DNA of 64,000 bases from an uncultured Acidobacteriota bacterium (GCA_963740035.1 CAVUDA010000012.1:41971-105970), one strand, 5' to 3'. Counted from the stretch's first letter, positions 34,706 to 59,319 are shown. Numbers and translations: made by a program. The notes: generated by a model not told the origin, from the sequence alone.

Positions 34706-34711
34706 ACCGCT

Positions 34712-37828: not shown

Positions 37829-37912
37829 GCGGAAGTGGCGGAATTGGCAGACGCGCCAGCCTTAGGAGCTGGTGGCCGAAAGGCCGTAGGGGTTCGAGTC
37901 CCTTCTTCCGCA
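37829..37912 (+). tRNA. tRNA-Leu (anticodon TAG), long variable arm, CCA not encoded
   Basis: Acceptor gcggaag/cttccgc, anticodon arm ccagc-ctTAGga-gctgg, variable arm tggccgaaaggccgt, T-arm agggg-ttcgagt-ccctt. The discriminator a is followed by gac. Confidence 0.9.
37891..37912 (+). repeat. Direct repeat, left copy (attL-like; T-arm and acceptor 3' strand of tRNA-Leu)
   Basis: 22/22 identity with 59298-59319, in the same orientation. Confidence 0.85.
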
Positions 37913-37923
37913 GACCTATTTTT

Positions 37924-37950
37924 GAAAAGCCAACGATTCGTGGGCTTTTC
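37924..37950 (+). terminator. Hairpin/terminator after tRNA-Leu
   Basis: gaaaagcc - 11-nt loop - ggcttttc, followed by tgcgtttt. Confidence 0.4.
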
Positions 37951-38425
37951 TGCGTTTTACAAGGCTTTTTGCATGATTTTTAGTCACCGAAACTGTCAGG
38001 CAGTATCAAGCACTATCACAAAAAAGAGTGATTTTGGGCGGCTATTGGGCTAACTGGAAACAGTAAAGAACAGGTTCGGAGGTGGGACTCCGAACGCTTG
38101 ACGAGGCTGTAGCGAGCCTCTGTCAAGTCTTCACTTATGACGTACTCAGGGGCTATTCTCGAACCGCCCTACCGCATCGCAATTATGGATACGGCGCAAG
38201 AAGTCGGCCCAATAGAATCTACCCATGTCCGTCTTGGCCAGGGTGGCGCAGCGTGTTGAACTTCTGTAATCAGACCTCGAACACTACCTTGAGCCATCGC
38301 ATGCTTTTGTTTGGATGTCTTAAGCTATATCGGTATCTTTCCCAGTACCAGCGGTGCTTATAGCAAATCCAAATTCACCCTTGCCCTCAGCAGCCGCCTT
38401 ATTTCTGAGACATAGCGTTTAGACT

Positions 38426-38441
38426 TGTGATGCAGATCACG
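38426..38441. promoter_or_regulatory. CRP-type palindrome tGTGAtgcagaTCACg upstream of the DUF3300/DUF2950 genes
   Basis: Perfect GTGA-N6-TCAC core, about 270 nt upstream of ATG 38711, in non-coding DNA. Confidence 0.5.
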
Positions 38442-38710
38442 GAATTGCGGTCAAAACACCAGCAATCTCAAGTTGGCAATGGGAGCCTTGGGAGCAAGTA
38501 ATTTAAGTGCATTACTGCCAAGGACAATGTAACTGCATGCGATGAGAGAAGGGCCAGATGTCACTATTTTTCCGCTTTACCCCGTCATCGGGCTGTAGAG
38601 ATTCGGCCTGGTGATCGAAACTGCGAGCGGGAACCAACTTGAAATGTGTCCCACTCATCTACTGCAATGGAAGGCTTCGAGCGATGAAGGTGCGGAGGAG
38701 GTTCAATTCC

Positions 38711-39904
38711 ATGAAGATTTTCGGACGTGTCGTCAGTTGCTCAAAGCCTGGATTGGGCAGGCAAGCTTTGGTCACCCTGATGTCCCTGGCCCTATTGTTC
38801 GCCACATGGCCCCAGAATCTGTCGGCCTATCAAGACACTCAAGCTCCGGCGCAGACGACGCCCGCGCCTCCCTACACGCAGCAGACCCCGGAGCAATTGC
38901 AGCAGCTGGTAGCGCCAATTGCGCTGTATCCGGACTCGCTGGTGGCGCAAATTTTGGCAGCGTCCACCTTTCCCGAGCAAGTCGTCCAGGCAGACCGATG
39001 GGTGCAGGATCATCCTGATCTGAAGGGTGAAGCACTGGGTCAGGCCGTGGACCAACAACCTTGGGACCCAAGCGTCAAGGCGCTCACTGCATTTCCATCC
39101 GTCCTCGGAAATATGGACAAGAACCTGTCCTGGACGTCGTCTCTCGGCGACGCTTACTACAACCAGCAGCAGGCTGTGATGGATGCAGTGCAGGTGATGC
39201 GCCAGAAGGCGCAGCAGGCCGGCACCCTGCAGTCAACGCCGCAGCAATCTGTGACCTCGCAAGGCTCGACGGTCGTCATTCAGCCTGCTGCCCCCGATGT
39301 CGTTTATGTTCCTGCCTATGATCCTTGGCTGGTCTACGGGTATCCCATCGCACCGTGGCCGGGGTGGTACCCCTATCCCGGAATTTGGTATGGAGGTCCT
39401 TACCTTTCATTTGGAATCGGCTTTGGAATTGGCTTCTTCGGTGGTTTTGGATGGAGTTGGCCTTATTGGGGATTCGATTGGCACAACCGGTACCCAATCT
39501 TTAACCACAACAGGTACTACTCGCGGAGCACCACGTTTTACAATCGAAACTATTATTACCGGGGAGGAGGCGCACGCGGCGGATTTGTAGCCCGCCCGAG
39601 TCCCGGGAGCAGGCCTCCCGCCGGAAGCTTTGGCGGGCGCGGTGGGGTTTACAACCGTCCCGGCGGAACGACCAGGCCTTTCGAGGGAAACAACCAGGCT
39701 GCACGAGGATACGCGGAACCTCGCGGTCAGAGTGGAACCCACTCGGGTGCTTTCAGCGGCTACGGCCAGGGCGGACAGGCAAGGAGCTATTCGTCACGCG
39801 GAAGCGGGAGCATCGGCGGCGGGGCAACGCGCGGCGGAGGCGGTGGAGCGTCTCGCGGTGGCGGTGGCGGAGCACCTCACGGTGGCGGTGGCGGGCATCG
39901 GTAA
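38711..39904 (+). CDS. DUF3300-family secreted protein with Gly/Arg/aromatic low-complexity tail
   Basis: QLQQLVAPIALYPDSLVAQILAASTFPEQVVQADRWV...WDPSVKALTAFPSVL is the DUF3300 core. The C-terminal 170 aa or so are W/Y/G/F-rich, then RGG/GGGGG-rich. Confidence 0.8.
   Translation: MKIFGRVVSCSKPGLGRQALVTLMSLALLFATWPQNLSAYQDTQAPAQTTPAPPYTQQTPEQLQQLVAPIALYPDSLVAQILAASTFPEQVVQADRWVQDHPDLKGEALGQAVDQQPWDPSVKALTAFPSVLGNMDKNLSWTSSLGDAYYNQQQAVMDAVQVMRQKAQQAGTLQSTPQQSVTSQGSTVVIQPAAPDVVYVPAYDPWLVYGYPIAPWPGWYPYPGIWYGGPYLSFGIGFGIGFFGGFGWSWPYWGFDWHNRYPIFNHNRYYSRSTTFYNRNYYYRGGGARGGFVARPSPGSRPPAGSFGGRGGVYNRPGGTTRPFEGNNQAARGYAEPRGQSGTHSGAFSGYGQGGQARSYSSRGSGSIGGGATRGGGGGASRGGGGGAPHGGGGGHR
39827..39898 (+). repeat. 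3 x 24-nt imperfect tandem repeat encoding (T/S/P)(R/H)GGGGG(A/H)
   Basis: acgcgcggcggaggcggtggagcg / tctcgcggtggcggtggcggagca / cctcacggtggcggtggcgggcat at the 3' end of the DUF3300 gene. Confidence 0.7.
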
Positions 39905-39979
39905 TCGAGGTCTCGTAGGGGTGCGGGCTTTACTTGGAGATGGTTCGTATAACTTCCTTGCAGATCGTGACATTTAGAA

Positions 39980-40975
39980 ATGGAGAAAAGCCATATGCGG
40001 CGAATGAACCTGAATTCCCACAAATTTCATTTGGCCCGATTTTCCAAAATAGCCGCCATTGCCGTGCTTTTGACGGGATGCTTGCCCACCCGTTCGCTGG
40101 CGCAAGAACAGGGCCAGAAGACATTTTCATCGGCGGAGGACGCGAGCAACGCCCTCGTCACGGCGGCGCAGAATAACGACGAACAGGCGCTGCTCGATAT
40201 CCTCGGACCAGTTGAAAAGCGAGTCGTTTCGTCGGGAGACGAAACTGAGGACGCCCAAAGCCGCGCTAATTTTGTGCAGAAATATCAGGAAATGCACCGT
40301 CTGGTGAAAGAACCGGACGGGACCACCACGTTATATATCGGCGCGGAGAATTGGCCCACTCCCATTCCGCTCGTGAACAAAGGCAATTCGTGGTATTTCG
40401 ACACCGACGCGGCCGAGAAAGAAATCTTGTTCCGGCGGATTGGCCGGAATGAAATATCGACCATTCGCGTCTGTCAGGAGCTCGCGGCGGCGGAAAAGGA
40501 ATACTACTCCACACACCACAACGAGTACGCTCAGAAGATTTTCAGCGATCAAGGACAGCGCAATGGCCTGTATTGGAAGGCGGCGAATGGCGAACCTCAC
40601 AGCCCGATCGGGCCGCTCGTGGCAGCAGCCGATGCTGAAGGCTATGGCAGAAGCCGAAACGACGCACCGACTCCTTACCGCGGCTACTTTTACCACATCC
40701 TGACCAGTCAGGCGGGCAATGCACCCAGCGGCGCCAAAAGTTACATCGTAAACGGCAAGATGACTGAGGGTTTCGCTTTCGTGGCCTATCCGGCGGAATA
40801 CAGATCCTCCGGCGTAATGACATTCCTCGTCAACGAAAAAGGGGCAGTGTACCAGAAGGATCTGGGCAAGCAGACCGCTGCTCTCGCCAAGGCCATGAAG
40901 GAATACAACCCCGATTCCAGCTGGCAAAAAGCCGAAGATGAGCAGGTGACCGCCGGCACGCAAAAGACCAAGTAA
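39980..40975 (+). CDS. DUF2950-family secreted protein
   Basis: Signal/lipobox (LLTGC), then FSSAEDASNALVTAAQNND..ALLDILGP, YIGAENWPTPIPLV, GYFYHILTSQ, GFAFVAYPAEYRSSGVMTFLVN. This family is a usual partner of DUF3300. Confidence 0.8.
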   Translation: MEKSHMRRMNLNSHKFHLARFSKIAAIAVLLTGCLPTRSLAQEQGQKTFSSAEDASNALVTAAQNNDEQALLDILGPVEKRVVSSGDETEDAQSRANFVQKYQEMHRLVKEPDGTTTLYIGAENWPTPIPLVNKGNSWYFDTDAAEKEILFRRIGRNEISTIRVCQELAAAEKEYYSTHHNEYAQKIFSDQGQRNGLYWKAANGEPHSPIGPLVAAADAEGYGRSRNDAPTPYRGYFYHILTSQAGNAPSGAKSYIVNGKMTEGFAFVAYPAEYRSSGVMTFLVNEKGAVYQKDLGKQTAALAKAMKEYNPDSSWQKAEDEQVTAGTQKTK

Positions 40976-41107
40976 AGAAGATCATGTCGCTGCTTTACTT
41001 CGTCAAGACCTCATCCGCGTCCATTGACGAAACCCACAGAGAAGTTCCTGAGCCAGGATAGAGCCGAAAGTCATTAACCGAGTACTGTTGTGCGGCGTGT
41101 CGGGCGA

Positions 41108-41530
41108 TTACTTTTCCTGCAGAGCAGCCAGAAAATCGCAGAGGTTCCGGATGCGCTGCTGTGCGGATTTTTGATTGTAGTAGTATTCAAAAAGGGGCCC
41201 CCACATGGGCATATCGCCCGATCCGTGAGACGGAACACCGGGAGCAAATTGAAGAACTCCGGCGACATAGGCGTATGGAAACTTGCCGCCGTGACGCTTG
41301 GCCAGTGTCGTAAGATCCGGCGCGGGTTTCCTAAGCGCCTTTTTCACAGGGCCGTTACCCTTCGCATTAGCTCCATGACATGCGGCGCAATACTGTGTGT
41401 AGATCGCCGCGCCGGACGGGACATAGTCCGCCGGAAGTTGATTTTGATCCTGGGCTCGGGTCGCTCTGGTACCCGCGGCGCAGAGGACCAAGAGCATGGC
41501 AGCAAGCGGAAATATTCTGTGCGGAGCCAT
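41108..41530 (-). CDS. Class-I c-type cytochrome (paralog A)
   Basis: Signal peptide, CAACH haem motif, PDLTTLAKRHGGKFPYAYV, and MPMWG (Met ligand region). Confidence 0.85.
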   Translation of the reverse strand: MAPHRIFPLAAMLLVLCAAGTRATRAQDQNQLPADYVPSGAAIYTQYCAACHGANAKGNGPVKKALRKPAPDLTTLAKRHGGKFPYAYVAGVLQFAPGVPSHGSGDMPMWGPLFEYYYNQKSAQQRIRNLCDFLAALQEK

Positions 41531-41628
41531 TATTCCTCCAAGTTTCCATTCTGGTTTTCGCGGGAGCGCACTGTTTTTCCTCGTGGCGCGATCAATTGCC
41601 GGCAGGTTTTTTCCTTAAGTGCATTGTG

Positions 41629-42183
41629 TCAAGCGGGCTGTGACCCGATTGGCGATCCAGCACGGACGAGCACCACGGTTCTATCGGCAGCTCGAAGCAC
41701 TTTGTCGGCGACGCTCCCGTACACCCATCGGTTGATGCCAGTGCGGCCATGCGTGGTCATCACGATCCGATCGATTTTGTGTTTTCGCGCAAAATTGAGG
41801 ATCACCTCGGCTGGGACGCCCATTTCCACAGTGGCAGCCACCTTTACGTTCTTCCAGCCGGGGCGCGTGCAAATGCTTTCCAGATAGTGCATCGCATGGA
41901 TTCTCCGGTTCTCCCATTGCTGATCGATGGTGATTATTTCGCCATCGGAAATCACATCCTCTATGGGAGGGACCACGTGGAGGAGGATCACTCTCGACTC
42001 GGGCAGCTTCGCTAAAGCGAGCGCCTCAGGCAATGCAAGCTCTGCAAGAGTTGAACCGTCAAGCGGCACTAAAATGCTCTGACTCAATTGCATGGCTCCC
42101 ATGAGAATTGGTGATCGTCCCAGCCACTGGATGACGGTCGACCAGAAGCATAAAACAGCGACACCAACAATCCCTAACCTCAT
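41629..42183 (-). CDS. Universal stress protein with N-terminal hydrophobic segment
   Basis: Usp fold with ILVPLDGS...RIVMTTHGRTGINRWVYGSVADKVLRAADRTVVLV (G-x2-G-x9-G-S motif). ATG 42183 overlaps the TAA of the upstream OMP gene (TAATG). The 30-aa N-terminal extension is hydrophobic. Confidence 0.75.
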   Translation of the reverse strand: MRLGIVGVAVLCFWSTVIQWLGRSPILMGAMQLSQSILVPLDGSTLAELALPEALALAKLPESRVILLHVVPPIEDVISDGEIITIDQQWENRRIHAMHYLESICTRPGWKNVKVAATVEMGVPAEVILNFARKHKIDRIVMTTHGRTGINRWVYGSVADKVLRAADRTVVLVRAGSPIGSQPA

Positions 42184-43739
42184 TACTGACGCAACGAATT
42201 TGGACCGCTAGTAGCATTGATTCTCAACTGTTCCGGCGACGGGAGCTGCGCTACGTCCCAGCCGCCGCCCAGTGCCTTGATTAGATGGACGCTGGCGACC
42301 ATTTGCTGCAGGCGAAAGGTCACCGCGATTTGCTGATCGTTCAGCACAACCGTTTGGGCCGCGATCACGTTCAGGTAGGGATCGACGCCTGCCTCGTATC
42401 GCACAGTGGCTTCGTGCAAACTTCTTTGGGCCGATTGCACCGCGGCATCCTGCTGCTGAATATCCTGGGACAGGATTCTTACGGCCGCCAGATTGTCTTC
42501 CACTTGCTGGAACGCGGTCAATACGGTCTGGCGGTAATTTGCCACCGTCTGATCGTATGCGAATTGGGATTGTTGCAGGGCGGCTCTTCGCAGTCCCGCG
42601 TCAAAAATCGTTTCCGCAAGACTTGGTCCCACCGACCAGAATCGGCTCGGCCAGGTAAACCAATCCGCGATGGAAGCGCTGCCGAACCCGCCCGTCGCGC
42701 TCAAGGTGACATTCGGATAGTAGGCGGCTTTCGCTATGCCAATCTGCGTATTCGCTTGCGCCATCGCGCGTTCGGAGGCGGCGATGTCCGGACGGCGTTG
42801 GAGTAGATCGGCGGGGATGCCAGGAGGGATTGACGGAGGATTCGCATTCAGCGGCTCTACGGGAATAGAAAATGTCGATGCCGGTTCGCCCGCCAACAGA
42901 GCGATCGCATGCTCGTACTGCGCGCGTAGAACGCCGAGGTTCGTATCCTGCGCTTGTGTAGCTTCCAGTTGGGCTTCGGCTTGAGCGACCGCTTCGTCCG
43001 TTCCAATGCCGGCTTTGAATTGGACCTGGGTGAGATTCAGAGTTTCCCCATAGGCAATGACGGTGGTGTCAAAAAGCTGCTTCAAGGCATCCTGCGCGCG
43101 AAGCTGGTAATAGTCGGCCGCTAGCTCAGCCTCTACGGAGAGGCGCACATTTTCCAAGTCGGCGCCGCTTGCCTGGGCCGCATAGGTGGCCCCCCTCACC
43201 GTGTTGCGAACACGGCCCCACAAGTCGGGTTCCCAGGACGCGTCCGCGGGCAGCGAGTAATCGGTGAAGGAAGAGAGAGTGAATCCTGAGGTCGAAGAAC
43301 TTCCCGAGTGCACCCCGCCAAACTGGCCCGCCGAAGGGCGCGCATTCATGATGCTTGGATTCGTTGCGACCGTCGGAAAATATTGCGAGCGCGCTTCCCG
43401 GATGACGGTGCGGGCGGCAAAGAAATTCGCAACCGCAGCAGCGATTTCCTGGTTTGAAGTATCCGCCTTTTCTTCAAGCGCATTCAGCTGAGAGTCATGG
43501 AAGACGTCCCACCACTTTCCACGAGCCGCGCCGTCGCTCGGCTGGGCTGCTTTCCATTGTTCGGTCTGCGTATGATCCCCGGCAGCAAGCTCCTTGTAAG
43601 CTGAAGGAGTTTGCACCGGCGGCCTCGCGTACTTCGGACCCACCGTGCATCCGGCCAGGAGGAGCATCCAGACCGCGCAGGCTGCCAAGGCCCCTTGCGT
43701 CATATTCGGTTTTGTTCGGCGCCACATTTCAATTCTCAC
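42183..43739 (-). CDS. Outer-membrane efflux lipoprotein (NodT/TolC family)
   Basis: Lipobox LLLAGC, GPKYARPPV, and two TolC-like repeats. Possible starts are GTG 43739 (overlapping the HlyD stop), ATG 43727 and ATG 43703. Confidence 0.85.
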   Translation of the reverse strand: MRIEMWRRTKPNMTQGALAACAVWMLLLAGCTVGPKYARPPVQTPSAYKELAAGDHTQTEQWKAAQPSDGAARGKWWDVFHDSQLNALEEKADTSNQEIAAAVANFFAARTVIREARSQYFPTVATNPSIMNARPSAGQFGGVHSGSSSTSGFTLSSFTDYSLPADASWEPDLWGRVRNTVRGATYAAQASGADLENVRLSVEAELAADYYQLRAQDALKQLFDTTVIAYGETLNLTQVQFKAGIGTDEAVAQAEAQLEATQAQDTNLGVLRAQYEHAIALLAGEPASTFSIPVEPLNANPPSIPPGIPADLLQRRPDIAASERAMAQANTQIGIAKAAYYPNVTLSATGGFGSASIADWFTWPSRFWSVGPSLAETIFDAGLRRAALQQSQFAYDQTVANYRQTVLTAFQQVEDNLAAVRILSQDIQQQDAAVQSAQRSLHEATVRYEAGVDPYLNVIAAQTVVLNDQQIAVTFRLQQMVASVHLIKALGGGWDVAQLPSPEQLRINATSGPNSLRQ

Positions 43740-44818
43740 TCACCGATGAATACGTCTACCAATTCGCCTGGATAAAGGTACGTTTTTTCTGTCTTCTCAA
43801 TTCTAAATATGACGGGCAGCACTCTGACGTCCACCCGCTCGGTCCTCTGGTTGGAAAGCTCGATCTTCGGTGAGACGAACGGCTGCATCCTCACGTAGTC
43901 GAGGGCCAGCTTCGTGCCCGACCCGCGAATCGACATTTGTGCCTTCATCTTGTTTGGCGCGGGGAGGCGATGGACGAGAATTTCATCGACGTAGCAACGC
44001 ACGTTCAAGAACCCCTGCAGGCTACCGAGCACCATCACCGGAATCATGCTCTGCGTGTAGCTGTCGTAGGAGCCCTGCGGTGATACGAAACTACCAGCCG
44101 TCGGATTGATGGAAAGCACCATGCCGTCCCTTGGTGCGCGAAGCGTGTACTTGGAAAGCAGGGCGCTCGATGCCAGGTAGGATTTTTGCAATGCGTTTTG
44201 CTGGCGTTCCTGATTGGCGACGTCGTAGGACCAGGCTCCCGCTTTGGTCAGGTCATATTGTTTCTGAGCCACTGCCAGGTTGGCTTTCGCCACCGCGGCC
44301 GCGTTGAATGAACTGTCCAAGGCATCCTTGCTGATGGACTTCGGATCCATTTCGTAAGAAGCTTGCAGCTTGGCCAGCGCGTCCTCCGCGGTCTTGAGTG
44401 TTGCTTTCGCCGCTTCGACCTGGGACTCTGCGATCTCAAGGTTCTCTTTCCTCGGCTCTGCCTTTAGCTCTTGAAGCAGCGACCACGCAGCCTGCGCCTG
44501 CGATTGCAGCTGTTCGCTGGTCGCACTCTGAACGGAATCATCGATTAACACCAGCGCATCACCTTTGTGCACCACCTGCCCCTCGGCGACAAGAATTTGC
44601 TTCACGGTTCCGGGAACTTCCGGATACACATTGATGTTTTCGCCGCTGGCCTGATCGCTTTCCACAATGCCTTCCGCATAGATGCCGTTGGCATAGGGGT
44701 CCGAGAATGGTTGAAAAACAGGCGGGAGCGGCGGATTCGTAATACCGAAAAGGTAAGCAGCCGTCGCCCCGGCGATAATGCCGGTGATGGCGAGCGTAAA
44801 TAGAATTTTATTTTTCAT
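43736..44818 (-). CDS. HlyD/DevB-type membrane fusion protein
   Basis: ATG 44818 (MKNKILFTLAITGIIAGATAAYLF), lipoyl-like VKQILVAEGQVVHKGDALVLID, and a coiled coil. The ATGA overlaps the ATPase stop. Confidence 0.85.
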   Translation of the reverse strand: MKNKILFTLAITGIIAGATAAYLFGITNPPLPPVFQPFSDPYANGIYAEGIVESDQASGENINVYPEVPGTVKQILVAEGQVVHKGDALVLIDDSVQSATSEQLQSQAQAAWSLLQELKAEPRKENLEIAESQVEAAKATLKTAEDALAKLQASYEMDPKSISKDALDSSFNAAAVAKANLAVAQKQYDLTKAGAWSYDVANQERQQNALQKSYLASSALLSKYTLRAPRDGMVLSINPTAGSFVSPQGSYDSYTQSMIPVMVLGSLQGFLNVRCYVDEILVHRLPAPNKMKAQMSIRGSGTKLALDYVRMQPFVSPKIELSNQRTERVDVRVLPVIFRIEKTEKTYLYPGELVDVFIGE

Positions 44819-45516
44819 GCCGCCCTCTCTTGTGTCCCCGTGATCCGGCCGTCTTCCATCTTCAAGATCCGGCTGGCGAATTCGTAGATTCTGCTGTCGT
44901 GCGTGACAACCACGATGCAGCGATTGGCGTCGAGAATGTTCTCGCGAACGAACTGCAAAATGGCATGTCCCGTATCGCCATCCAGGGAAGCGGTCGGTTC
45001 GTCCATGATCAGGATGTCCGGCTTTCCAATCATGGCGCGCGCGATGGCCACTCGTTGCTGTTCGCCTCCGCTGAGTTTCATGGGAGGGAGGTCTGCACGC
45101 GCCTTGAGCCCGACGATATCCAAATAGTGGATCGCTTCCTGGATGGAGGTATCCCACGGCGCTTTTTTGAGGATCAGCGGAATCGCTACATTCTCCGCAG
45201 TGTTCAGGCGCGGAAAGAGGTGGAAATCCTGAAATACGAAGCCGAGTTTGTGAAGGCGGAAATCCGCCAGATGATTGCTATCGAGAGTCCAGATGTCCGT
45301 TCCGTCCGCCAGAACGTGGCCGGAGTTGGGCCTGAGAATCCCCGAGAGCACGCTCAGCAGCGTCGTCTTGCCGCTTCCCGACGGCCCCACGATGTAGATC
45401 ATTTCACCGAAATCCGCGTGGAGATCGACGCCGCGGAGAGCCAGGGTCTTGGCGTCTCCCTCGCCAAACCATTTCTCGAGCCCGCTCGCTTCTATGGCTG
45501 TGCGCGGCATATTCAT
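44815..45516 (-). CDS. ABC transporter ATP-binding protein (DevA/MacB-NBD/LolD type)
   Basis: GPSGSGKTTLL, LSGGEQQRVAIARA, ILIMDEPTASLD. The ATGA overlaps the permease stop. Confidence 0.9.
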   Translation of the reverse strand: MNMPRTAIEASGLEKWFGEGDAKTLALRGVDLHADFGEMIYIVGPSGSGKTTLLSVLSGILRPNSGHVLADGTDIWTLDSNHLADFRLHKLGFVFQDFHLFPRLNTAENVAIPLILKKAPWDTSIQEAIHYLDIVGLKARADLPPMKLSGGEQQRVAIARAMIGKPDILIMDEPTASLDGDTGHAILQFVRENILDANRCIVVVTHDSRIYEFASRILKMEDGRITGTQERAA

Positions 45517-49845: not shown

Positions 49846-49883
49846 AGTGAGACCAATCACATTTCGGAGTGAGGGGAGTCACA
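49846..49883. promoter_or_regulatory. Two tandem CRP-type palindromes (aGTGAgaccaaTCACa and aGTGAggggagTCACa), centres 22 bp apart
   Basis: Both cores are perfect (49846-49861 and 49868-49883). They lie in the divergent intergenic region between the PRTase operon (start 49775, minus) and the LPKTAS-protein gene (start 50170, plus). Confidence 0.6.
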
Positions 49884-50835: not shown

Positions 50836-51907
50836 TCACCATGAACGCGACGAAACTCCAATGCGCCGCGGGCAAGAGTTGCTGCTCTGGCCCGCGGCGC
50901 AGGGAGGTTCTACTGTGAATCTTGCGACTTCATCGCGCGAACCAATCTCCCGCGGCTGCGGCATTTTCGCCGTGGCTGTGCTCTTGTGCGCGGCTGCGGC
51001 CTATGCGCGCACGGCTCAATCCGCACAGTCTACCTCCGCAGGCCAAGGCACAATTTCCGTGGAGACTGCGCTGGTAGTGCTCCCAGTTCGCGTAACCGGC
51101 GCGGACGGTGATTTCGTTTCCGGACTGGCACAGGAACGCTTTCGCGTTTACGAGGACGGCCGGTGGCAGCCGATTACACTTTTCCGGCAGGAAGATACTC
51201 CGGTGACGGTGGGCTTGGTGGTGGACCACAGTCGCAGCATGGGTCCGAAGCTCTCGGGCGTGGCTGCCGCGGTTTCAGCCTTCGCGCAATCGAGCAATCC
51301 GGACGATGAAATGTTCGTGGTGGACTTCAGCGACAACGTGTCGGTGGAACTGCCCGGAGGAAAACCCTTCACCAGCAATCCTCAGGAGCTGGCACAGGCC
51401 GTATCGGCGGTCTCCGCGCGCGGAATGACCGCGCTCTACGACGCCGTGGCCGAAGGGTTGAATCATCTGCAACTCGGCCGGTGGGATAAGAAGGCGCTGA
51501 TCATCGTCAGCGACGGCGGCGACAATGCCAGCGGGCGAAAGTACGCAGACGTCTTGGAGCTGTCACGCCAATCGCAGGCGGTGATTTACGCGATCGGACT
51601 GGTCGGCGCACCTGAAGAAGAAAACCCAGGAGTCCTTCGGCGGCTATCCAAAGACACAGGTGGATTGGCGTTCTTTCCGGCGCAAGGGGAATCGATCTCA
51701 GACATCTCCTCGAGGATCGCGCACGATCTCCGCGAGCAATACACGCTGGGATTCACGCCGGAAAAGAGAAACGACGACTCGTTTCGGAAAATTCATGTAG
51801 AAGTGACGGCTCCCGGACTGGGCAAACTGCAGGTGCGGACGCGCTCCGGCTATTCCGCCGCGGCGCTGAAGCGGCCCGTGGCCGGAGCGAGCAAGGGCCA
51901 GTCATGA
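50825..51907 (+). CDS. von Willebrand factor A domain protein (Acidobacterial VWFA-related, TIGR03436-like)
   Basis: N-terminal anchor, VVLPVRVTGADGDFVSGLAQERFRVYEDGRWQPITLF, and MIDAS-like VVDHSRSM. The start is ambiguous (50825, ATG 50861 or GTG 50915). No C-terminal sorting signal. Confidence 0.8.
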   Translation: MLADHHERDETPMRRGQELLLWPAAQGGSTVNLATSSREPISRGCGIFAVAVLLCAAAAYARTAQSAQSTSAGQGTISVETALVVLPVRVTGADGDFVSGLAQERFRVYEDGRWQPITLFRQEDTPVTVGLVVDHSRSMGPKLSGVAAAVSAFAQSSNPDDEMFVVDFSDNVSVELPGGKPFTSNPQELAQAVSAVSARGMTALYDAVAEGLNHLQLGRWDKKALIIVSDGGDNASGRKYADVLELSRQSQAVIYAIGLVGAPEEENPGVLRRLSKDTGGLAFFPAQGESISDISSRIAHDLREQYTLGFTPEKRNDDSFRKIHVEVTAPGLGKLQVRTRSGYSAAALKRPVAGASKGQS

Positions 51908-52542
51908 GAGTGACCATCGCCATGAGCCAGGACGGAGAAGAATTGAGGGGGCGGATGCTTCGCGCGGCCTACTACGCGTTTCTGGTGGCCGGGATCATGG
52001 CACTTAGTTATGCGGGCTATGCCGTGCTGGACCGTTACTGGTTTCAGGGCATCGAGACGTCGAAGTTTGAAACGGTCAGCACGCCGGCCGAGCTGCCCAC
52101 AGTCGAGGCGGCTCCAATTGCAGAAGGTGGCGTGATCGGCGAGATCGAAGTCCCGCGCCTGGGATTGAAAGCGATTGTCGTGCAGGGCGATTCGGAGAAA
52201 CTGTTGCGGCGCGCGGTGGGGCATCTCCCGGAAACCGCGCTTCCCGGCGAAGCAGGAAACGTCGCCCTGGCGGGCCATCGCGACAGTCTCTTCCGGCCGC
52301 TGCGCAACGTCCGTCCGGGCGACACAATCACTTTGCGGACGCCGGACCGGGAATTCCAGTACGAAGTGGAATGGACCGCGGTAGTCCCTCCGACGGCGGT
52401 GCGGGTGATCCAACCGACGACGGAGCCGGCACTGACGCTGGTTACGTGCTTTCCGTTTTACTACGTCGGAGCGGCACCGGATCGATTCATCGTTCGCGCG
52501 CGCAAAATCGCGGTTGCACCGAAGGCGCCGAGCGCGCCCTGA
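51904..52542 (+). CDS. Sortase-family transpeptidase
   Basis: N-terminal TM anchor, catalytic His context NVALAGHRD, catalytic Cys TLVTCFP, and a downstream Arg (RFIVRA). The ATGA overlaps the vWA stop. Confidence 0.85.
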   Translation: MRVTIAMSQDGEELRGRMLRAAYYAFLVAGIMALSYAGYAVLDRYWFQGIETSKFETVSTPAELPTVEAAPIAEGGVIGEIEVPRLGLKAIVVQGDSEKLLRRAVGHLPETALPGEAGNVALAGHRDSLFRPLRNVRPGDTITLRTPDREFQYEVEWTAVVPPTAVRVIQPTTEPALTLVTCFPFYYVGAAPDRFIVRARKIAVAPKAPSAP

Positions 52543-52623
52543 ACGAGCAGAGCCCACCGGAATGTCCAGAGTTCAAGCAACAGACAGCTATTCTAGCTCT
52601 CTATGATGTAAACCACATCCTTG

Positions 52624-52639
52624 CGTGATGTAGAACACT
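52624..52639. promoter_or_regulatory. Imperfect CRP-type site cGTGAtgtagaACACt upstream of cytochrome c paralog B
   Basis: One core mismatch (ACAC instead of TCAC). About 80 nt upstream of ATG 52715. The left half is identical to the ytxH site (cGTGAtgt). Confidence 0.35.
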
Positions 52640-52714
52640 GAGATTGACTCGCACTGGCAGCAACCTAATTGTGGGGCAGGGTAGTTAGAGTTAGAACCTG
52701 TCCGGGAGGAAAGT

Positions 52715-53194
52715 ATGATTACGCGCTCCATGATCTTGCTTGCTGCTTTGTTCTATGTCGTCACTGCAGCCGGCGCCAAAGATCACTCACCTGTGGAACA
52801 GACGCAGTTTCCATCAGCCTATGTTCCTTCGGGTGAGACAATGTTCAAGCAATATTGCTCCGCCTGTCACGGCGCCGACGGCAAAGGCGGCGGCCCAGTC
52901 GCGTCCGTGCTCAAAATACCGCCGCCAGATCTCACCACGCTGGCCATGCGTCATGGCGGCAAATTCCCGTACGAATATGTCTCTTCGGTTCTTCGGTTTG
53001 GGCCAGGCGTTTTCGCTCACGGCTCATCGGACATGCCCACATGGGGACCTATTTTCAATTTCATGGACAAGTACAACGAGCGCTCTGTACAACAACGCAT
53101 CATGAACCTTACCGGTTATCTGGCATCTCTGCAGCAGTGGGTGATCGCTGACCGGTCGACGGACTTCTTCGAGAGCCCGTCCGCACGACATTAG
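52715..53194 (+). CDS. Class-I c-type cytochrome (paralog B)
   Basis: CSACH, PPDLTTLAMRHGGKFPYEYV, MPTWG. Collinear with paralog A but with a 20-aa C-terminal extension. Confidence 0.85.
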   Translation: MITRSMILLAALFYVVTAAGAKDHSPVEQTQFPSAYVPSGETMFKQYCSACHGADGKGGGPVASVLKIPPPDLTTLAMRHGGKFPYEYVSSVLRFGPGVFAHGSSDMPTWGPIFNFMDKYNERSVQQRIMNLTGYLASLQQWVIADRSTDFFESPSARH

Positions 53195-53268
53195 TTGTAC
53201 TTTGGTTTGAATGGACGCACTGCAGTCAATCAGACTAAAGCACGGAAAGTTTCACTTGGAGGCCCTTG

Positions 53269-53703
53269 ATGTCCGTGCGATTTATTCGCGATGCCTTTGT
53301 GATCTGCGCGCTGCTCGGATCGACTGCCAGCCTCCATGCCGCACAGCAAGAGCAAGTCAAAAAGGCTCAGGCCAGCCTTCCAAATTCCCCAACTGGCGAT
53401 GAACTGTACAAGAAACACTGCGCAGTCTGCCACGGCAACGATTTAAAGGGAGTTAGCCCAGTCCCCGCCCCATACAGAGTGCCGCCAGATCTGACCACGT
53501 TGGCCCGGCGCCACGGCGGCATATTCCCTGACGCCTATGTTGCGGACGTGCTTCGGAATGGCGTGACCATGCCTGCGCATGGCCCCGCTCAGATGCCAAT
53601 CTGGGGAACAGATTTTACGGAGATGGACGGATTAGACGCGACTCAGGTCAAAATACGGATTGCTAGTCTGGCGAACCACATTAAATTACACCAGGCAAAA
53701 TAA
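53269..53703 (+). CDS. Class-I c-type cytochrome (paralog C)
   Basis: CAVCH, PPDLTTLARRHGGIFPDAYV, MPIWG. More diverged than A and B. Confidence 0.85.
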   Translation: MSVRFIRDAFVICALLGSTASLHAAQQEQVKKAQASLPNSPTGDELYKKHCAVCHGNDLKGVSPVPAPYRVPPDLTTLARRHGGIFPDAYVADVLRNGVTMPAHGPAQMPIWGTDFTEMDGLDATQVKIRIASLANHIKLHQAK

Positions 53704-53907
53704 AGCCAAGTAGCAATTTTCATTGTGTGGTTCGGGGCGCCACTTGATCCGGGTCCGCGCGCTCGTGCAAGAAATAAGCAATGGTGGTATAAAAGTCGCG
53801 AACAATCATAAAGGCCGCCGCAGCCATCACATGTCCGTTAGCAAGTAGATTAGCAGGAAATTCAGGCGTCCCGACGAACTGCAAATGGAATACTCAGCGG
53901 GTGAGAG

Positions 53908-54777
53908 ATGCTAAAAATTGGCAGGATTCTTCTCCCGATCGATTTCGGGGATCCATCGAAGCAGGTGGTTCATCAGGCCGCGGTTCTAGCCCGCCACTTC
54001 CATTCCGAGATCGTGATGTTGCACGTGGTGACGCCGCTGAGCTATTCCGCGGGCATGATCGAGGGGGGTTATGTGCCCGCTAACCTGGGCGATCTGCTCC
54101 AGGAACTCATCCGCCAGGCTCAGAAAAATCTCGATCAGGCTCTGGGGCCCGAGTTCGATGGGATTGATGTTAAGCGCATGCTGCTCGAGGGTGATCCGGC
54201 GCTCACCATCGTGAAAACAGCCAGCGCCGAAAAAGCTGATTTGATCGCCATGCCGACGCACGGCTACGGTGCGTTTCGCCGCTTCCTCCTGGGTTCGGTG
54301 ACGGCAAAAGTCCTTCACGATAGCGATTGCCCCGTGTGGACCGGCGCTCATTTGGAAGAAGGGCCCGCCCGCGAATTTTCGATTCGCAACATCCTCTGTG
54401 CGGTTGATTTGAGCCCCCATAGCTCCAAGACATTCCAGTGGGCCGCGCAGATGGCCGCTGATTTTGGCGCCCGGCTGACCCTTGCTCATATCACTGCAGG
54501 CATGGAAATCTTTGGGCCTGGGCCCTACCAAGTGGACCCCTCCTGGACAGAGGCTCTTGTAAATTCCGCCAACCGCCAGCTCGCAAATCTTCAGCAGGAG
54601 GTAGGCACTAAGGCCGAGATATTCATCGGCAGTGGTGATGTGCCCAAGCTGTTGAGCTATGCGGCACAGCAAACGAGTGCGGATGTGCTCGTGATTGGCC
54701 GGCCCTCGAGCGGGCGCCTGCGAGCCACCGGCTATGGGATCATTCGCGAATCATCTGTTCCTGTCCTGAGCGTCTGA
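53908..54777 (+). CDS. Tandem-domain universal stress protein
   Basis: Two Usp domains (ILLPIDFGDPS...MPTHGYGAFRRFLLGSVTAKVLHDSDCPVW, and ILCAVDLSPHS...VIGRPSSGRLRATGYGIIRESSVPVLSV). Confidence 0.9.
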   Translation: MLKIGRILLPIDFGDPSKQVVHQAAVLARHFHSEIVMLHVVTPLSYSAGMIEGGYVPANLGDLLQELIRQAQKNLDQALGPEFDGIDVKRMLLEGDPALTIVKTASAEKADLIAMPTHGYGAFRRFLLGSVTAKVLHDSDCPVWTGAHLEEGPAREFSIRNILCAVDLSPHSSKTFQWAAQMAADFGARLTLAHITAGMEIFGPGPYQVDPSWTEALVNSANRQLANLQQEVGTKAEIFIGSGDVPKLLSYAAQQTSADVLVIGRPSSGRLRATGYGIIRESSVPVLSV

Positions 54778-55027
54778 AAGTGCGCTGGGATTCTAGTTCC
54801 TTCCTGCGACGCAAGTAAGGAGCGGTCAAACTTAGACCCCCGATGAGGAACGTCTTTTCCCCAGATCACGAAAGGGATCGAAACCGCGCGAACCGCCTGC
54901 TCGAAAATGCAAAAAAAACCTGCCTCGTGGTCCGCTCCATTAACAGCAAAGTGATCTTGGAGCAGAAAGTCATTGTGGAAGAAGAAGTCCTTGAGCGTGA
55001 AAAAATGGGGAATTCGATCCCGATCAG

Positions 55028-55234
55028 CTAAGCGTCTGCTAGTACCTTTGCCCATCTTTGTGGGTCCCCGGCTCTGATTCTGGTCGCGTCGAACAACGGG
55101 AATGTGAGCAAACGCCGGCCCGCAGTTTTAAATGCATCGTTGATTGCTTGCCGAAGCTCTTCATGCGGAACCTTCACTTCCGACTCAGCTGATGGTTTCA
55201 TATTCCGGCATGTAATCTGCAGTTCGGATTTCAT
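55028..55234 (-). CDS. HPF/RaiA-like ribosome-hibernation-factor remnant (too short; probably internally deleted)
   Basis: MKSELQITCRNMKPSAESE resembles the HPF N-terminal strand. VKVPHEEL..AINDAFKTAGRRL resembles the HPF C-terminal strand and helix. At 68 aa, the middle of the fold is missing. Confidence 0.35.
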   Translation of the reverse strand: MKSELQITCRNMKPSAESEVKVPHEELRQAINDAFKTAGRRLLTFPLFDATRIRAGDPQRWAKVLADA

Positions 55235-55630
55235 GGCGGCACCTCGCGCTCGCGTTATAGCTCGAATAGTTTGATCAGTGATTTTATTGCTGTCAGCTTT
55301 TCAATCTCCCTGGAATCCTTATTGGCCGCTCGCGCCACACGCCATCCTCCTCATGCTTGAGGTTGTAAATGTGAAGCAACCGCTATCCCGCGTCGAGAAG
55401 GCGGTTGACTTCCTCTCGGCCTCGCGCCTCCAGGTTGTGCCCGGTAAGTTCGACGATATCCAGTTGCCGTTGCGAATCAAAATACCCTTCATTTCCGTCT
55501 TATGTACATCACATGCGCCCAGGGGGGACAGCGACCCGAGTCACAGATCGCAGCAGACGAAAGAACTCCAAAGGGCTTGTCAATTCGTTACACGAATTGC
55601 AGCTCTTGGGCTGGTGGCGAGGGTGATGCC

Positions 55631-55936
55631 TTGAAGATACTGCTAGCAATTGATGGTTCCGAGTTTTCCCAGGCAGCAATGCAAGCTGTCATTTCTCAGA
55701 TGCGCTCCGAGGGCGCCGGGGTCCTCGTCCCGCGGGTGGCAGAACCACGCGTATTTATTACTCCGCCGCAAATGGCACCGGGATATGCGCCCGAGCAGGA
55801 CGAAATTCTTAAGGAAGATATTCGCCACGCAAAGGAATTGGTGAACCAAGCGAGACAAGTACTCGGGTCCGCCGGCTTCTGCGCGAGCACGCGCGTTGTT
55901 GAGCGAGGTAGGAGGAGCCTCAAAGTAGCTCTTTGA
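55631..55936 (+). CDS. Universal stress protein, C-terminally truncated
   Basis: TTG 55631 gives MKILLAIDGSEFSQAAMQAV..., a typical Usp start. The ORF stops after about 101 aa, before the G-x2-G-x9-G(S/T) nucleotide-binding motif. The stop codon sits inside a perfect 11-bp hairpin. Confidence 0.5.
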   Translation: MKILLAIDGSEFSQAAMQAVISQMRSEGAGVLVPRVAEPRVFITPPQMAPGYAPEQDEILKEDIRHAKELVNQARQVLGSAGFCASTRVVERGRRSLKVAL

Positions 55937-56055
55937 GGCTCCAGCACAGGCAGGCTGCTGAACGCGGAAACACGGAGGAAAGTGATTGTGGAGTGAAATA
56001 AGAGTTCTTCAATGCCAGCGTATGGATCCTGCAATTCCAGTTATGTGTATGCCGC

Positions 56056-56460
56056 TTAGGCTGCCGCATGGTATGCCTTACGGGAGCAGGTCGTTTCCTC
56101 AAGGGCCGACCAGATAATCGTCTCCGCTTCCACCGGATTCGGTGGACAAACGATAAAACCAAGTGCGCCGGCTCCAAGGACTTTTAGGTAAGAATCCCAA
56201 TCGGTGGAATGCGAAAGCACGATGACTGGCGCGTGAACCATTGATTTCTTCACTTCTCTCAAGACCACATGAAAATCACCGTCGGCCAGAATGTCCCTGC
56301 ACAGCACTAATCGAAATTCCTCTTGGGGCAATAAAGTGCGCGCTTCTTCCAAGTTGGAGCAGCAGATCGGATTCAATCCGCACTTGAGGGCTGAAGCGGC
56401 AATCCTTTGCCGGTCTTCTCCCTGGTTGCAGATAATTAGGGCAAGTTCGATGTTCGGCAT
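56056..56460 (-). CDS. Receiver-domain-like protein (possibly a pseudo-receiver)
   Basis: CheY-like alpha/beta pattern (LALIICNQGED...FRLVLCRDILADGDF...VIVLSH...LGAGALGFIVCP). The acidic pocket and phospho-acceptor region are non-canonical, and there is no output domain. Confidence 0.55.
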   Translation of the reverse strand: MPNIELALIICNQGEDRQRIAASALKCGLNPICCSNLEEARTLLPQEEFRLVLCRDILADGDFHVVLREVKKSMVHAPVIVLSHSTDWDSYLKVLGAGALGFIVCPPNPVEAETIIWSALEETTCSRKAYHAAA

Positions 56461-56497
56461 TGCTCCTCCTCGTCATCGCCGATCTTTATGCCCATTC

Positions 56498-57214
56498 CTA
56501 CAGGTTCGCGCAGCTTTCCAGAGCTGAGCGATTCGAGATCATGAGCGTCGATCCCTGAATGGTAACCAGATGGCGTACCTTGAAATCGCTCAAGGTGCGC
56601 GTGACCGTCTCGCGAGTGGTGCCGATGAATTCCGCGATTTCCTCGTGCGTCAGGGGCAGCTTGATTCGCGTGCCCTCTTTCGTCTGTTGAATTCCTTCCG
56701 ACCACGTCAGCAAGAGGCGCGCGAGTTTTTCCTGCGCGGAGGCCGAGAGTCCGATCGTGTGCAATTGTTCGCAGGCGCCCCGGTACTGAGAACTCATCTG
56801 CTTCACCGCGTTTTGAGAGGCTTCGGGATGGCTTCCCAGGAAGCGCAGGAAGTCTTCCCGGCGCACAAAGGCGACCTGGCAGGGGTGGATCGTCTCGGCC
56901 GTCACTTCATAGGGCAGGCCCGCCATGGCGGCCATCAGTCCGAGCAGTTCTCCTGCCCGGGCAATCCTCATTATCAGGGTCTTGCCTTCCGGTGAGCTGA
57001 TGGAAAGTTTTACTTCGCCTTCGCACAGCACGTAGACCCCGCGTGCGTCCTGTCTTTCGACGAACAGCAGGGCGCCCTTTGGATAGGTGGCCGTCGACTT
57101 GATCGCATCAAAGTCCTTTACCGCGGAGGGCGGCAACTGGCAGAAGAATCCTGAGCCTTTCACCTTGCAATTCTTGCAACCATCGTTCAGCTCTAATCCG
57201 TATGGACCTTTCAT
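56498..57214 (-). CDS. Crp/Fnr-family transcription regulator with Cys-rich N-terminus and CRP-type recognition helix
   Basis: cNMP-binding-like beta-roll (GALLFVERQDARGVYVLCEGEVKLS) and HTH THEEIAEFIGTTRETVTRTLSDF. RETVTR parallels E. coli CRP RETVGR. The N-terminus carries C-x2-C-x9-C (CKNCKVKGSGFFC). Confidence 0.9.
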   Translation of the reverse strand: MKGPYGLELNDGCKNCKVKGSGFFCQLPPSAVKDFDAIKSTATYPKGALLFVERQDARGVYVLCEGEVKLSISSPEGKTLIMRIARAGELLGLMAAMAGLPYEVTAETIHPCQVAFVRREDFLRFLGSHPEASQNAVKQMSSQYRGACEQLHTIGLSASAQEKLARLLLTWSEGIQQTKEGTRIKLPLTHEEIAEFIGTTRETVTRTLSDFKVRHLVTIQGSTLMISNRSALESCANL

Positions 57215-57229
57215 TGTTGCCTCCTCAGC

Positions 57230-57580
57230 TTAGTATTCAGATCTCGTGCGAATGCCCTGCTGCGCTTCTTCCGCGAAATGTTTCGTGAGCGGCGTGTCGG
57301 CCAGGAAGTCGGCCCCCGATTCGGCATGAATGTCAGCCAGCAAATCACGGCCTGTTCCGTCGATACGCGTCACCCCTCGAACGTCCACCAGAAGCTTTCT
57401 TTCTCCAAGGGAAGGGGCCAAAACCTGCCACGCTTGCTGCAGCGCTGGAACAGTGGGGCCGACGATCTTCCCTTCGATCTTCATGGTTACGCCCTCACCG
57501 TCCGCTTGGTGTATCGTCACTCTCACTGGTTCTCTTGATCCTTTGTTGTAACGCCTACCTATAGGCAATCCAGGAGCCAA
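57230..57580 (-). CDS. STAS-domain protein (anti-sigma-antagonist-like)
   Basis: VTMKIEGKIVGPTVPALQQAW...LLVDVRGVTRIDGTGRDLL follows the SpoIIAA/STAS pattern. The start is uncertain (TTG 57580, or the GTG about 57 nt downstream). Confidence 0.5.
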   Translation of the reverse strand: MAPGLPIGRRYNKGSREPVRVTIHQADGEGVTMKIEGKIVGPTVPALQQAWQVLAPSLGERKLLVDVRGVTRIDGTGRDLLADIHAESGADFLADTPLTKHFAEEAQQGIRTRSEY

Positions 57581-57671
57581 ATCTCTGATCCGAGGGAGAG
57601 TAGAGGTATCCCATTCTGGAACAATGGCTTAGTTGGGATGGGTGGTTTGTGTGGGCTAGCGCACAGGTCTA

Positions 57672-57687
57672 AGTGACGAAGATCACT
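57672..57687. promoter_or_regulatory. CRP-type palindrome aGTGAcgaagaTCACt upstream of the STAS-crp-receiver operon
   Basis: Perfect GTGA-N6-TCAC core, 90-150 nt upstream of the operon's first ORF. This suggests autoregulation. Confidence 0.55.
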
Positions 57688-59297
57688 GGCGATTAATCGT
57701 CAGCACTGACTAAATGTAGTCCGTGAGTTCGATTCCTAATTATTTCATCTTGGAATTTGGCGTCGCTCGGATCGGGCCCAGGCGAGCTAGTGCACTCTGG
57801 GACCACAGTGCTCTCGACCTCGCGCCAATTCCGGAGAATATGCTCCCGCTCTGCCGCTTCCGTGGGAGAACTCTGTGCCGGGATTGTCTTCTCCAGCGAC
57901 GCGACTTGAGCCTTGTCACTTGACTCGCTCGCCGCTGCGATTTCCGACAGGATAGGTGATGCGATATTTTTTGGACGCATCCAAAAGGTATGAACGAGTG
58001 AATCTATGGCTTCATGCTCAAAAACTCGTCAACCCAAGTCCCGCGTACCTTCGGCGCATCGCCATAGTATGCGCGCGAGGTCACCGATAATCATTTTGGC
58101 GCAAGTCCGCTACGAAACTGCGATTGCGGATGAAGGTCAGAACGTCCTTGTGCGCAATCCCTACGACAGACATTGGCTCACACGGGAGAATTTCGGAAAC
58201 GGCGAAATTCATAGCTACGACTATGTCAGTTCAGATGGTCCCTGTGCCTCGAGCATCACGGTAACCCTTCCTGACGGAACCAGAACATTGGTAAAAATCG
58301 CCAGCTCCGTTCCCGAAGCTCGTAAGCATCCTCCACATTGAGCCAATTCCTAAGTTGGGCAAATCTTGAGGCATTGCCACCTTGTAGTCGATTTTGTAAC
58401 TGCGAAAGGACCAAACTTCAGCAAGATTCGACAAGGTTAAATAAGCAAGCCGCAAACGATCCAACAGGAATCACTTGGAATCCACTTCATACATTCACTT
58501 TCCCCAAATCGATAGAACTGATACCGGCTTTCTCTCTCCTGGTAGAGGTTTTCCTGGAGAGATCGATCTTACTGCCCGTAATCCGCGAGCCGCCAAGGCC
58601 ACTCCTCGATTCACGCCCTTTCGCCTATTAGTGCGGGCAGCCCACCTCATGAACCGCCATCTAAAACAATGAAACTGTTTCACTTACGTAAGGCTTCCGT
58701 TTCTTGTGCTCAAATTGTTTCCAAGTGAAATATTTTGCGCGGAGCTGGGCACGCCCGTTTAAGTAATGCTGAAACTATTCGGACTCCCCCATCCAGTTTC
58801 ACATATTTATGCATCTTAATTCATAAATATGTATTTCTCACACTAGCCGGGACTCTTGAATTCATGGACGCAGACGCGGAGGCTCCGGTCTATGTCTGAC
58901 TCCGGCTCTGGCGGGTTAACGGGCAGACGGCCTTCCCTTACCCGGATATTGTCCCGCTCGATCTGTAGGAATCTGCGTAAGCAGACAGCGGATCTTTGCC
59001 CAAAGGATCAATGTGGCGCTCTCCATCTTGCGAATGCCGGGCGTAAGACCCGATGATATCGGACTGGCCAAACGAGCGACCTCGCTCCTTTATCGGCATG
59101 CTGATGGTGTTGCGCACGATCTTTACAGGTACTCGTGGGAATCTTTTTGTCCCGTCGTTGACTCGTGCAACCAATGCGGCCTTCGCCTTCGTAGAGCACC
59201 TCTGCGGTGAAGGGCATACCACATTGGGCACACCAATTGGGCACAATAGCAGCATCCCCTCCGGACGCCTTATAAACACTGCATGAAAGTGATGCAT

Positions 59298-59319
59298 GGT
59301 TCGAGTCCCTTCTTCCGCA
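59298..59319 (+). repeat. Direct repeat, right copy (attR-like orphan tRNA-Leu 3' fragment, followed by cca)
   Basis: 22/22 identity with 37891-37912. No matching 5' acceptor strand (gcggaag) in the 90 nt upstream, so it is not a second tRNA gene. It is followed by cca, which the intact gene lacks. Confidence 0.85.

Follow-up and report, generated by a model that had tools for sequence, protein, structure and literature searches.

A probable genomic island with an integrase remnant between tRNA-Leu(TAG) and tig in an uncultured Acidobacteriota bacterium

The 64,000-nt stretch of an uncultured Acidobacteriota genome analyzed here (GCA_963740035.1, CAVUDA010000012.1:41971-105970; hereafter, the window) contains an intact tRNA-Leu(TAG) gene at 37829-37912 (+), identified by ARAGORN and Rfam (RF00005, 57.4 bits). 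This gene is separated from the trigger factor gene tig by a 21.4-kb region (37913-59297) that is very probably a genomic island made by site-specific integration and later immobilized. The last 22 nt of the tRNA gene, GGTTCGAGTCCCTTCTTCCGCA, are present in exactly two copies, at 37891-37912 and 59298-59319, both on the plus strand and identical in 22 of 22 positions. No third copy was detected in the window even with 3 mismatches, and none of 100 shuffled sequences contained any match, so that the identical, same-orientation repeat of the tRNA 3' end noticed in the initial annotation is fully borne out. Only the first copy belongs to an intact tRNA; ARAGORN, run on the whole window, calls none near 59.3 kb, and Rfam likewise finds only two tRNAs in the 64 kb, which makes the distal copy an orphan fragment, as originally proposed. 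The second tRNA gene, tRNA-Lys(ctt) at 31017-31091 (-), encodes its own CCA. The intact tRNA-Leu encodes none and is followed by GAC (GACCTATTTTTG), and the orphan is followed by CCA (59320-59322; CCACAATTGC) and then by the native upstream region of tig, all in agreement with the initial description of these ends. The orphan end is 242 nt from the tig ATG (59562), close to the earlier figure of about 240 bp. The 5' part of the tRNA-Leu gene is chromosomal, and the two copies of the repeat, delineated by repeat search and alignment A1 (the distal one also by blastn), correspond to the attL core (37891-37912, +) and the attR core (59298-59319, +).

Comparison with related genomes identifies the unoccupied form of this site. 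A trigger factor probe yielded 80 loci from species-representative genomes, each including as much as 10 kb of sequence before tig. All of them are from metagenome-assembled genomes assigned to uncultured Acidobacteriota, to Terriglobia, or to Ca. Acidoferrales, although the names on a few records are those of other phyla. The tRNA-Leu(tag) gene is located directly upstream of tig in 14 of these, and of the 18 loci in which Tig has at least 88% identity to that of the window, 10 contain an empty site (L001, L002, L004, L005, L008, L013, L025, L060, L076, and L077; the identity of Tig in the aligned region is 90-97%). Each of the ten has one intact tRNA-Leu with a single 22-mer, followed by CCA in nine genomes and by CTA in L025. 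The spacing between the tRNA and the tig anchor is 229-234 nt in nine of the ten and 154 nt in L076; for the orphan in the window, it is 233 nt. The homology between the window and the empty-site genomes restarts exactly at 59298 (blastn), and the orphan with its CCA is the ancestral chromosomal 3' end, as had been surmised. In alignment A1, the empty site corresponds to the left half of attL (the 5' part of the tRNA and its promoter) joined to the right half of attR (the orphan and the downstream flank). The search for a tRNA-Leu-tig junction with a single 22-mer, suggested at the outset as a check on the attL/attR signature of site-specific integration, was thus positive in ten close relatives. 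Another 7 close relatives (Tig at least 88% identical) lack a tRNA-Leu within 10 kb of tig.

A remnant of a tyrosine integrase gene is located next to attR. A 139-aa open reading frame (ORF) on the minus strand (58938-59357) adjoins the orphan; a word-index protein search with a 93-aa fragment of it produced a sole match, the near-identical 151-aa metagenome protein P0001. An exhaustive HMMER search with P0001 retrieved 29 proteins, three of them full length (P0005, 406 aa; P0018, 430 aa; P0020, 431 aa) and matched through their N-terminal ~120 residues; these three carry PF00589 (Phage_integrase) and SAM-like core-binding domains. Using tblastn, residues 2-84 of P0005 were aligned with window positions 59189-58944 (51% identity, E 2e-19), and residues ~84-122 follow in another frame, down to 58852, indicating a frameshift near 58975-59005. 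After correction of the frameshift, the remnant (58852-59189, -) covers residues ~2-116 of a ~400-aa protein; its identity to P0054 (400 aa), over residues 2-116, is 76.5%, and its identity to P0057 is 72.6%. At its start codon, it has ACG where the intact genes read ATG (alignment A3).

Nothing of the integrase survives beyond this N-terminal part. P0054 has its SAM-like domain from residue 112 onward and its catalytic domain at residues 227-380; neither the core-binding nor the catalytic domain is present in the remnant, no tblastn match to residues beyond 122 was found anywhere in the window, and the family-invariant H342, R345, H367, and Y376 (alignment A4) have no counterpart in the window. 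Given the ACG start, the frameshift, and the loss of the catalytic residues, the gene is dead. The initial annotation had reported no recognizable integrase and suggested recombinase profile searches of the flanks. For Pfam, which has no model for the integrase N-terminal domain, that statement stands: no recombinase was matched among ORFs of at least 50 aa, nor when the two flanks were translated in six frames and searched at E<=5. By homology (exhaustive HMMER and tblastn), it fails, the N-terminal third of the gene being recognizable. The expected place of the rest of the gene, a degraded, low-GC, non-coding stretch at 57581-58851, yielded nothing relevant in the six-frame Pfam search at E<=5 and nothing with PHROGs, and PHROGs searches with the small and unassigned ORFs and the remnant itself gave no phage-related match. 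This stretch contains a 111-aa ORF (58006-58341, +) that is a called gene in locus L083 and has no Pfam or PHROGs match. The integrases found at the same chromosomal site in loci L003 and L007 have no tblastn match in the window; they belong to a different lineage, the similarity of which to the P0005 family is restricted to the catalytic domain (25-30% identity). Scans of IMG/VR with P0054 and with the family alignment detected only uninformative relatives with 26-29% identity.

The sequences that flank the cores at both ends of the island are homologous to those next to intact integrases of this family. In loci L165 (integrase P0054; 26-kb contig ERZ28533575 NODE_15310) and L166 (P0057), the core TCCCTTCTTCCGCA lies 107-115 nt upstream of the integrase gene, on the opposite strand, the same layout as in the window, where 108 nt separate the remnant from attR and its reading direction is toward the interior of the island. 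On this side, window positions 58897-59320 are 73% identical to positions 1583-2008 of L165 (A3), and the spacer between the integrase gene and the core (59190-59297), apparently the attP arm beside the integrase, is conserved among the window, L165, L166, and L081, including the repeated motif TTGGGCACA-N5-TTGGGCACAAT that is also found upstream of the integrase genes in L170-L172. The repeated motif (A)CACATTGGGCACA-CCAAT-TGGGCACAAT, at 59215-59250 in the window, is found in all examined members of the family (L165, L166, and L170-L172) in the interval that separates the att core from the integrase start and is probably an integrase arm-binding or regulatory site. At the opposite end, the attL core is followed by what appears to be the attP arm far from the integrase (37913-37982, +), a CCA-less tRNA trailer (GACCTATT...) with a terminator-like hairpin at 37924-37950. 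Window positions 37894-37982 are 85% identical over 89 nt to positions 1517-1602 of L165 (A2), where this stretch follows the same core beside an intact integrase; this similarity supports the earlier suggestion that the present 3' end of the functional tRNA-Leu is element-derived. In both L165 and L166, the core is followed by [C/A]ACC[T/C]AT...GAAAA.CCAAC, not by CCA. The hairpin was not flagged by a simple terminator scan and was detected by folding (-13.1 kcal/mol, z = -2.8 in the window; -17.7 kcal/mol in L165). The trailer at attL and the integrase arm at attR match what a single attP predicts. In two other loci, L170 (9812-9895) and L171 (9809-9892), an intact tRNA-Leu(GAG) downstream of tpi-secG is followed by an integrase gene 61-64% identical to the remnant; this tRNA also lacks CCA (trailer TACCTAAC...), and the integrase is on the attL side. 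The integrase family therefore uses more than one leucine isoacceptor and both attP orientations.

Some evidence on the age of the island comes from the metagenome contigs that encode P0001. There are four of these, and the longest one (ENA ERZ25039525 contig_165643; L081/L169) is colinear with window positions 47924-59297, the right half of the island, at 95-96% identity, equal to the value for the adjoining tig-lon core. This contig has the same truncated integrase and differs from the window by three inserts: 5.7 kb at window position 55108 (an AMP-binding enzyme and 2-oxoacid dehydrogenase E1a/E1b/E2), 2.7 kb at 55903 (CMAS and DAO), and 283 bp at 58484. Because the right half and the truncated integrase are shared at core-level identity, the island and the death of its integrase appear to predate the split of the two lineages. 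The description of the island as fixed and decayed is upheld by this relative, and the cargo is still changing by insertions and deletions. The more distant L009 (core identity ~89%) shares with the window the module of receiver, Crp, and universal stress protein genes; beside tig, in the place where attR and the integrase should be, L009 encodes an IS256/Mutator-family transposase (8652-9917).

The composition of the region departs from that of the core only in part. The GC content of the island is 0.560, compared to 0.579 for the core, and its tetranucleotide distance is 0.0160 versus 0.0127 (p = 0.003). Strong deviation is confined to the two flanks (GC of 0.485 at 37913-38638 and 0.513 at 57581-59297), neither of which contains an ORF with a Pfam match. 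The view that the flanks are low in GC and poor in genes is accordingly supported, and the signal for the island as a whole is only modest, which fits a donor from the same phylum.

Between these flanks, the island encodes a mosaic of genes assigned by Pfam. The spacer at 37983-38638 is ORF-poor and low in GC (0.485); from 38418 on, it comprises the upstream region of the DUF3300 gene and is kept with that gene in L085 and L086. It is followed by a pair of genes for secreted proteins on the plus strand (38639-40975), DUF3300 (38639-39904, E 2.7e-70) and DUF2950 (39980-40975, E 2.2e-100). The minus strand then encodes a cytochrome c (41108-41530) and a universal stress protein (Usp; 41629-42183). 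A 265-aa ORF at 41090-41887 (+) is probably spurious, the opposite strand encoding this 140-aa cytochrome c, a third paralog of the pair found further downstream. Next, at 42183-46649 (-), there is a MacAB-TolC-type efflux set that consists of an outer-membrane factor (42183-43739), a HlyD-type adaptor (43736-45157), an ABC ATPase (44815-45516), and a FtsX/MacB permease (45513-46649). This set is followed, still on the minus strand (46995-49814), by a YtxH-like protein (46995-47459), an erythromycin-esterase-family protein (47659-48990), and a phosphoribosyltransferase (PRTase; 49080-49814). The plus-strand block at 50170-54777 encodes a hypothetical protein (50170-50835), a VWA protein (50825-51907), a sortase (51904-52542), two cytochromes c (52715-53194 and 53266-53703), and a tandem-domain Usp (53908-54777). 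The last module (55502-57580), which is common to L009 and L081/L169, includes a weak Usp-like protein (55502-55936, +), a receiver-like protein (56056-56460, -), a Crp/Fnr regulator (56498-57214, -), and a weak STAS-like protein (57230-57580, -). Altogether, the island contains 3 cytochromes c and 3 clear universal stress proteins plus a weak one by Pfam.

By gene content, the island is neither a prophage nor a conjugative element. No capsid, terminase, portal, or tail genes were found by Pfam in ORFs of at least ~100 aa or by PHROGs in the unassigned small ORFs; no relaxase, coupling protein, or type IV secretion family of Pfam was detected in any island ORF, and no replication genes were found by Pfam. 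The earlier failure to recognize an excisionase or a transfer gene was repeated with Pfam across the island ORFs, and the mobility of the island is inferred rather than observed.

A metagenome scan with DUF3300 did not yield an intact island in which an integrase gene separates the tRNA from DUF3300; it found the DUF3300-DUF2950 pair to be ubiquitous among soil Acidobacteria, where it occurs in numerous unrelated contexts. L086 contains, in other surroundings, a block ~84% identical to window positions 38418-42167. The esterase-like, PRTase, h118, Crp, receiver, and Usp genes recur near DUF3300-DUF2950 in L108, L117, L137, and L140, in other orders. The notion of a coherent stress/redox gene set is only partly sustained by these comparisons: the recurrent co-occurrence lends it some support, and the cargo is a mosaic, the modules of which occur in other genomic contexts in other Acidobacteria. 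In two more distant relatives, L119 and L132, DUF3300-DUF2950 is divergently oriented beside tig with no tRNA between them, and in L151, the pair is ~4 kb upstream of tRNA-Leu. The linkage of these two genes to the surroundings of tig and tRNA-Leu is thus recurrent. In L085, the contig with the closest DUF3300 homolog, the 3' end of a tRNA-Glu(ctc) gene, TCCCGGTATCGCTACCA, at 86-102 is repeated 1.2 kb downstream, at 1302-1318; this seems to be another small att-bounded remnant, at a different tRNA. As for function, the mycobacterial DosR dormancy regulon includes Usp genes and a fused esterase-PRTase protein (Rv2030c), so a role of the cargo in a low-oxygen or stationary-phase response is a reasonable guess by analogy, and the cargo may serve a stress or low-oxygen response more generally.

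Taken together, these observations strongly support the following history. A tyrosine integrase would have recombined the attP of an element with the last 22 nt of tRNA-Leu(TAG), a chromosomal gene that was then directly upstream of tig. Since the attP core duplicates the 3' end of the tRNA, recombination would have rebuilt a functional tRNA with a CCA-less end, a trailer, and a terminator hairpin, all supplied by the element. The original 3' end, with its CCA, would have been displaced 21.4 kb downstream to become part of attR, with the integrase gene just inside attR and reading inward. Subsequently, the integrase gene would have lost its start codon, gained a frameshift, and lost ~70% of its length, including every catalytic residue, so that the element could no longer excise itself and would have been inherited vertically, with the cargo continuing to gain and lose modules. 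The original event would have been a gain, and the entire cargo of 19 kb could have arrived with one element. Several findings weigh against this history. The island encodes no functional recombinase with the catalytic R-H-R-Y domain, and neither Pfam nor PHROGs detects a functional recombinase, excisionase, phage, or transfer gene in it. The intact relatives of the integrase belong to elements that are phage-like or satellite-like and include genes for capsid, DUF3631, and AEP or D5 primase proteins; the cargo has no resemblance to these elements. The order of core and trailer in L165 and L166 could reflect tandem arrays instead of a true attP: L166 looks like such an array because it is chromosomal, with tig 6 kb away, and L165 could be either. 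The left end of the island is unseen in the ~95% identical relative, contig_165643 starting at about window position 47845. Finally, cargo modules, for example DUF3300-DUF2950, are found in many places that are not islands; in L119, L132, and L151, they are close to tig or tRNA-Leu and no repeats flank them.

A rival scenario is a composite one: a small phage-like or satellite-like element, contributing the integrase gene and attP, would have integrated first, and the cargo would have built up between the att sites as more integrations took place at this tRNA, as the region exchanged DNA with other islands by homologous recombination, and as internal att sites and phage genes were deleted. The intact members of the integrase family carry phage and replication genes, not stress genes; in L166, a second trailer-like arm and then 6 kb of unrelated genes separate the integrase-bearing element from tig, an arrangement resembling a tandem array. 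The 5.7-kb and 2.7-kb differences within the island of the ~95% identical relative, the block shared with L086 in another context, and the different gene orders in other genomes all point in the same direction. However, no internal att remnant is detectable (a 15-mer of the core, with up to 2 mismatches, matches only the two island ends), and no phage gene fragments were found inside the island with Pfam or PHROGs. On balance, composite assembly appears possible but somewhat doubtful; it concerns only the way the island was assembled and leaves the origin of its boundaries by site-specific integration undisputed.

Another scenario, in which the island is ancestral to the clade and the empty sites result from precise loss, either by integrase-mediated excision or by recombination between the 22-nt repeats, would account for the patchy distribution, the island-bearing L169 (95% core identity) and L009 (89%) being interleaved with empty-site genomes (90-95%) when ranked by tig-lon identity, and precise excision would restore the tRNA with its CCA as observed. 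Nevertheless, a single locus is a poor clock, the window and L081-L084 already share a dead integrase, which makes recent excision unlikely in that lineage, and the repeats themselves would still require an integration event, so this scenario is improbable. The idea that the 22-nt repeat has nothing to do with mobile DNA, being a chance match or left over from a partial duplication of a tRNA gene, could draw only on the absence of an intact recombinase, and practically no weight can be given to it: it is refuted by the shuffling results, the unoccupied sites of relatives, the presence of an integrase remnant within 108 nt of the orphan, and the homology of the arms to intact elements.

Site-specific integration into tRNA-Leu(TAG), the preferred explanation, is not confined to the window, and the site is an integration hot spot. 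In L003 and L007 (Tig 95-96% identical), shorter orphan cores are present at the identical position, with no tRNA within 10 kb, and intact PF00589 integrases of 453 and 459 aa are encoded in the same place and orientation as the remnant in the window, along with RepB-primase-type genes; these two loci contain a different element family at the identical site. Another orphan is found in L010, and tRNA-Leu lacks CCA in L031, L058, L062, and L074. We tentatively propose, as a possibility that merits consideration although we would not yet favor it, that the tRNA-Leu(TAG)/tig site is a hot spot throughout the Ca. Acidoferrales lineage, with two or more distantly related lineages of integrases making use of it. 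One element family among them would systematically swap the CCA-encoding tRNA end for a CCA-less end with its own terminator, and the module of dead integrase and attP would then frame a fast-evolving adaptive locus that shuffles a recurrent stress/low-oxygen set (Usp, Crp/Fnr, cytochromes c, erythromycin-esterase-like protein and PRTase, and DUF3300/DUF2950). A second variable region (32927-37828) is located immediately upstream of the tRNA-Leu promoter and encodes an RND pump, with a HlyD-type adaptor (33587-34705) and AcrB. This slot is empty in L002; AcrB is ~40% identical in L001, L005, L013, L025, L060, and L076 and 82% identical in L018. In the window, AcrB (34712-37778) is split into two overlapping ORFs, 34712-35293 (ACR_tran positions 9-183) and 35265-37778 (188-1016), and is either a frameshifted pseudogene or the product of a sequencing error.

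The island is of an ordinary, well-understood kind and reveals no new mechanism. Its value is that of a clean, resolved case of tRNA-targeted integration followed by immobilization in an abundant uncultured soil lineage, which yields exact attL, attR, and attB sequences and a previously unmodeled family of integrase N-terminal domains; the hot spot could be used for cataloguing mobile DNA in Acidobacteriota metagenome-assembled genomes, and the recurrent co-occurrence of the cargo genes hints at a transferable stress/low-oxygen module. Integrative elements that target tRNA genes with tyrosine (phage-type) integrases were reportedly surveyed by Williams in Nucleic Acids Research in 2002. Examples include the pathogenicity islands of E. 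coli at leuX, the symbiosis island of Mesorhizobium at phe-tRNA, and the clc element at tRNA-Gly. The island shares with these elements an attP core that copies the tRNA 3' end, the regeneration of the tRNA, a direct repeat of 17-25 nt at the far end, an integrase gene abutting one att site, niche-adaptive, non-phage cargo, and an empty site in close relatives. It is unlike them in that the integrase is a pseudogene reduced to the N-terminal third and the island is immobile, with no transfer or phage genes left, the rebuilt tRNA has lost its encoded CCA, and the host is an uncultured soil acidobacterium; that is, it has the structural hallmarks of tRNA-targeting islands and lacks a functional recombinase. 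The integrase belongs with the family of P0054, P0057, and P0005 (PF00589 and SAM-like domains, from uncultured Acidobacteriota), as indicated by up to 76.5% identity, the motif upstream of the gene, and the position of the core as in L165 and L166, but the copy in the window lacks residues ~117-400, and other members of the family (L170 and L171) target tRNA-Leu(GAG) downstream of secG. Within the phylum, decayed islands near tRNA genes have already been described: the candidate islands near tRNA genes, with integrase fragments, of Ca. Solibacter usitatus (PMC3174227) are an example of fixed ("anchored") islands and prophage remnants. Those islands resemble the present one in their location next to tRNA genes, GC content below the genome average, decayed mobility genes, lack of an intact prophage, and vertical inheritance after fixation. 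Unlike them, the island in the window has two exact att sites, and its empty site, integrase family, and attP arms were identified by comparison; its history is therefore resolved rather than deduced from composition alone.

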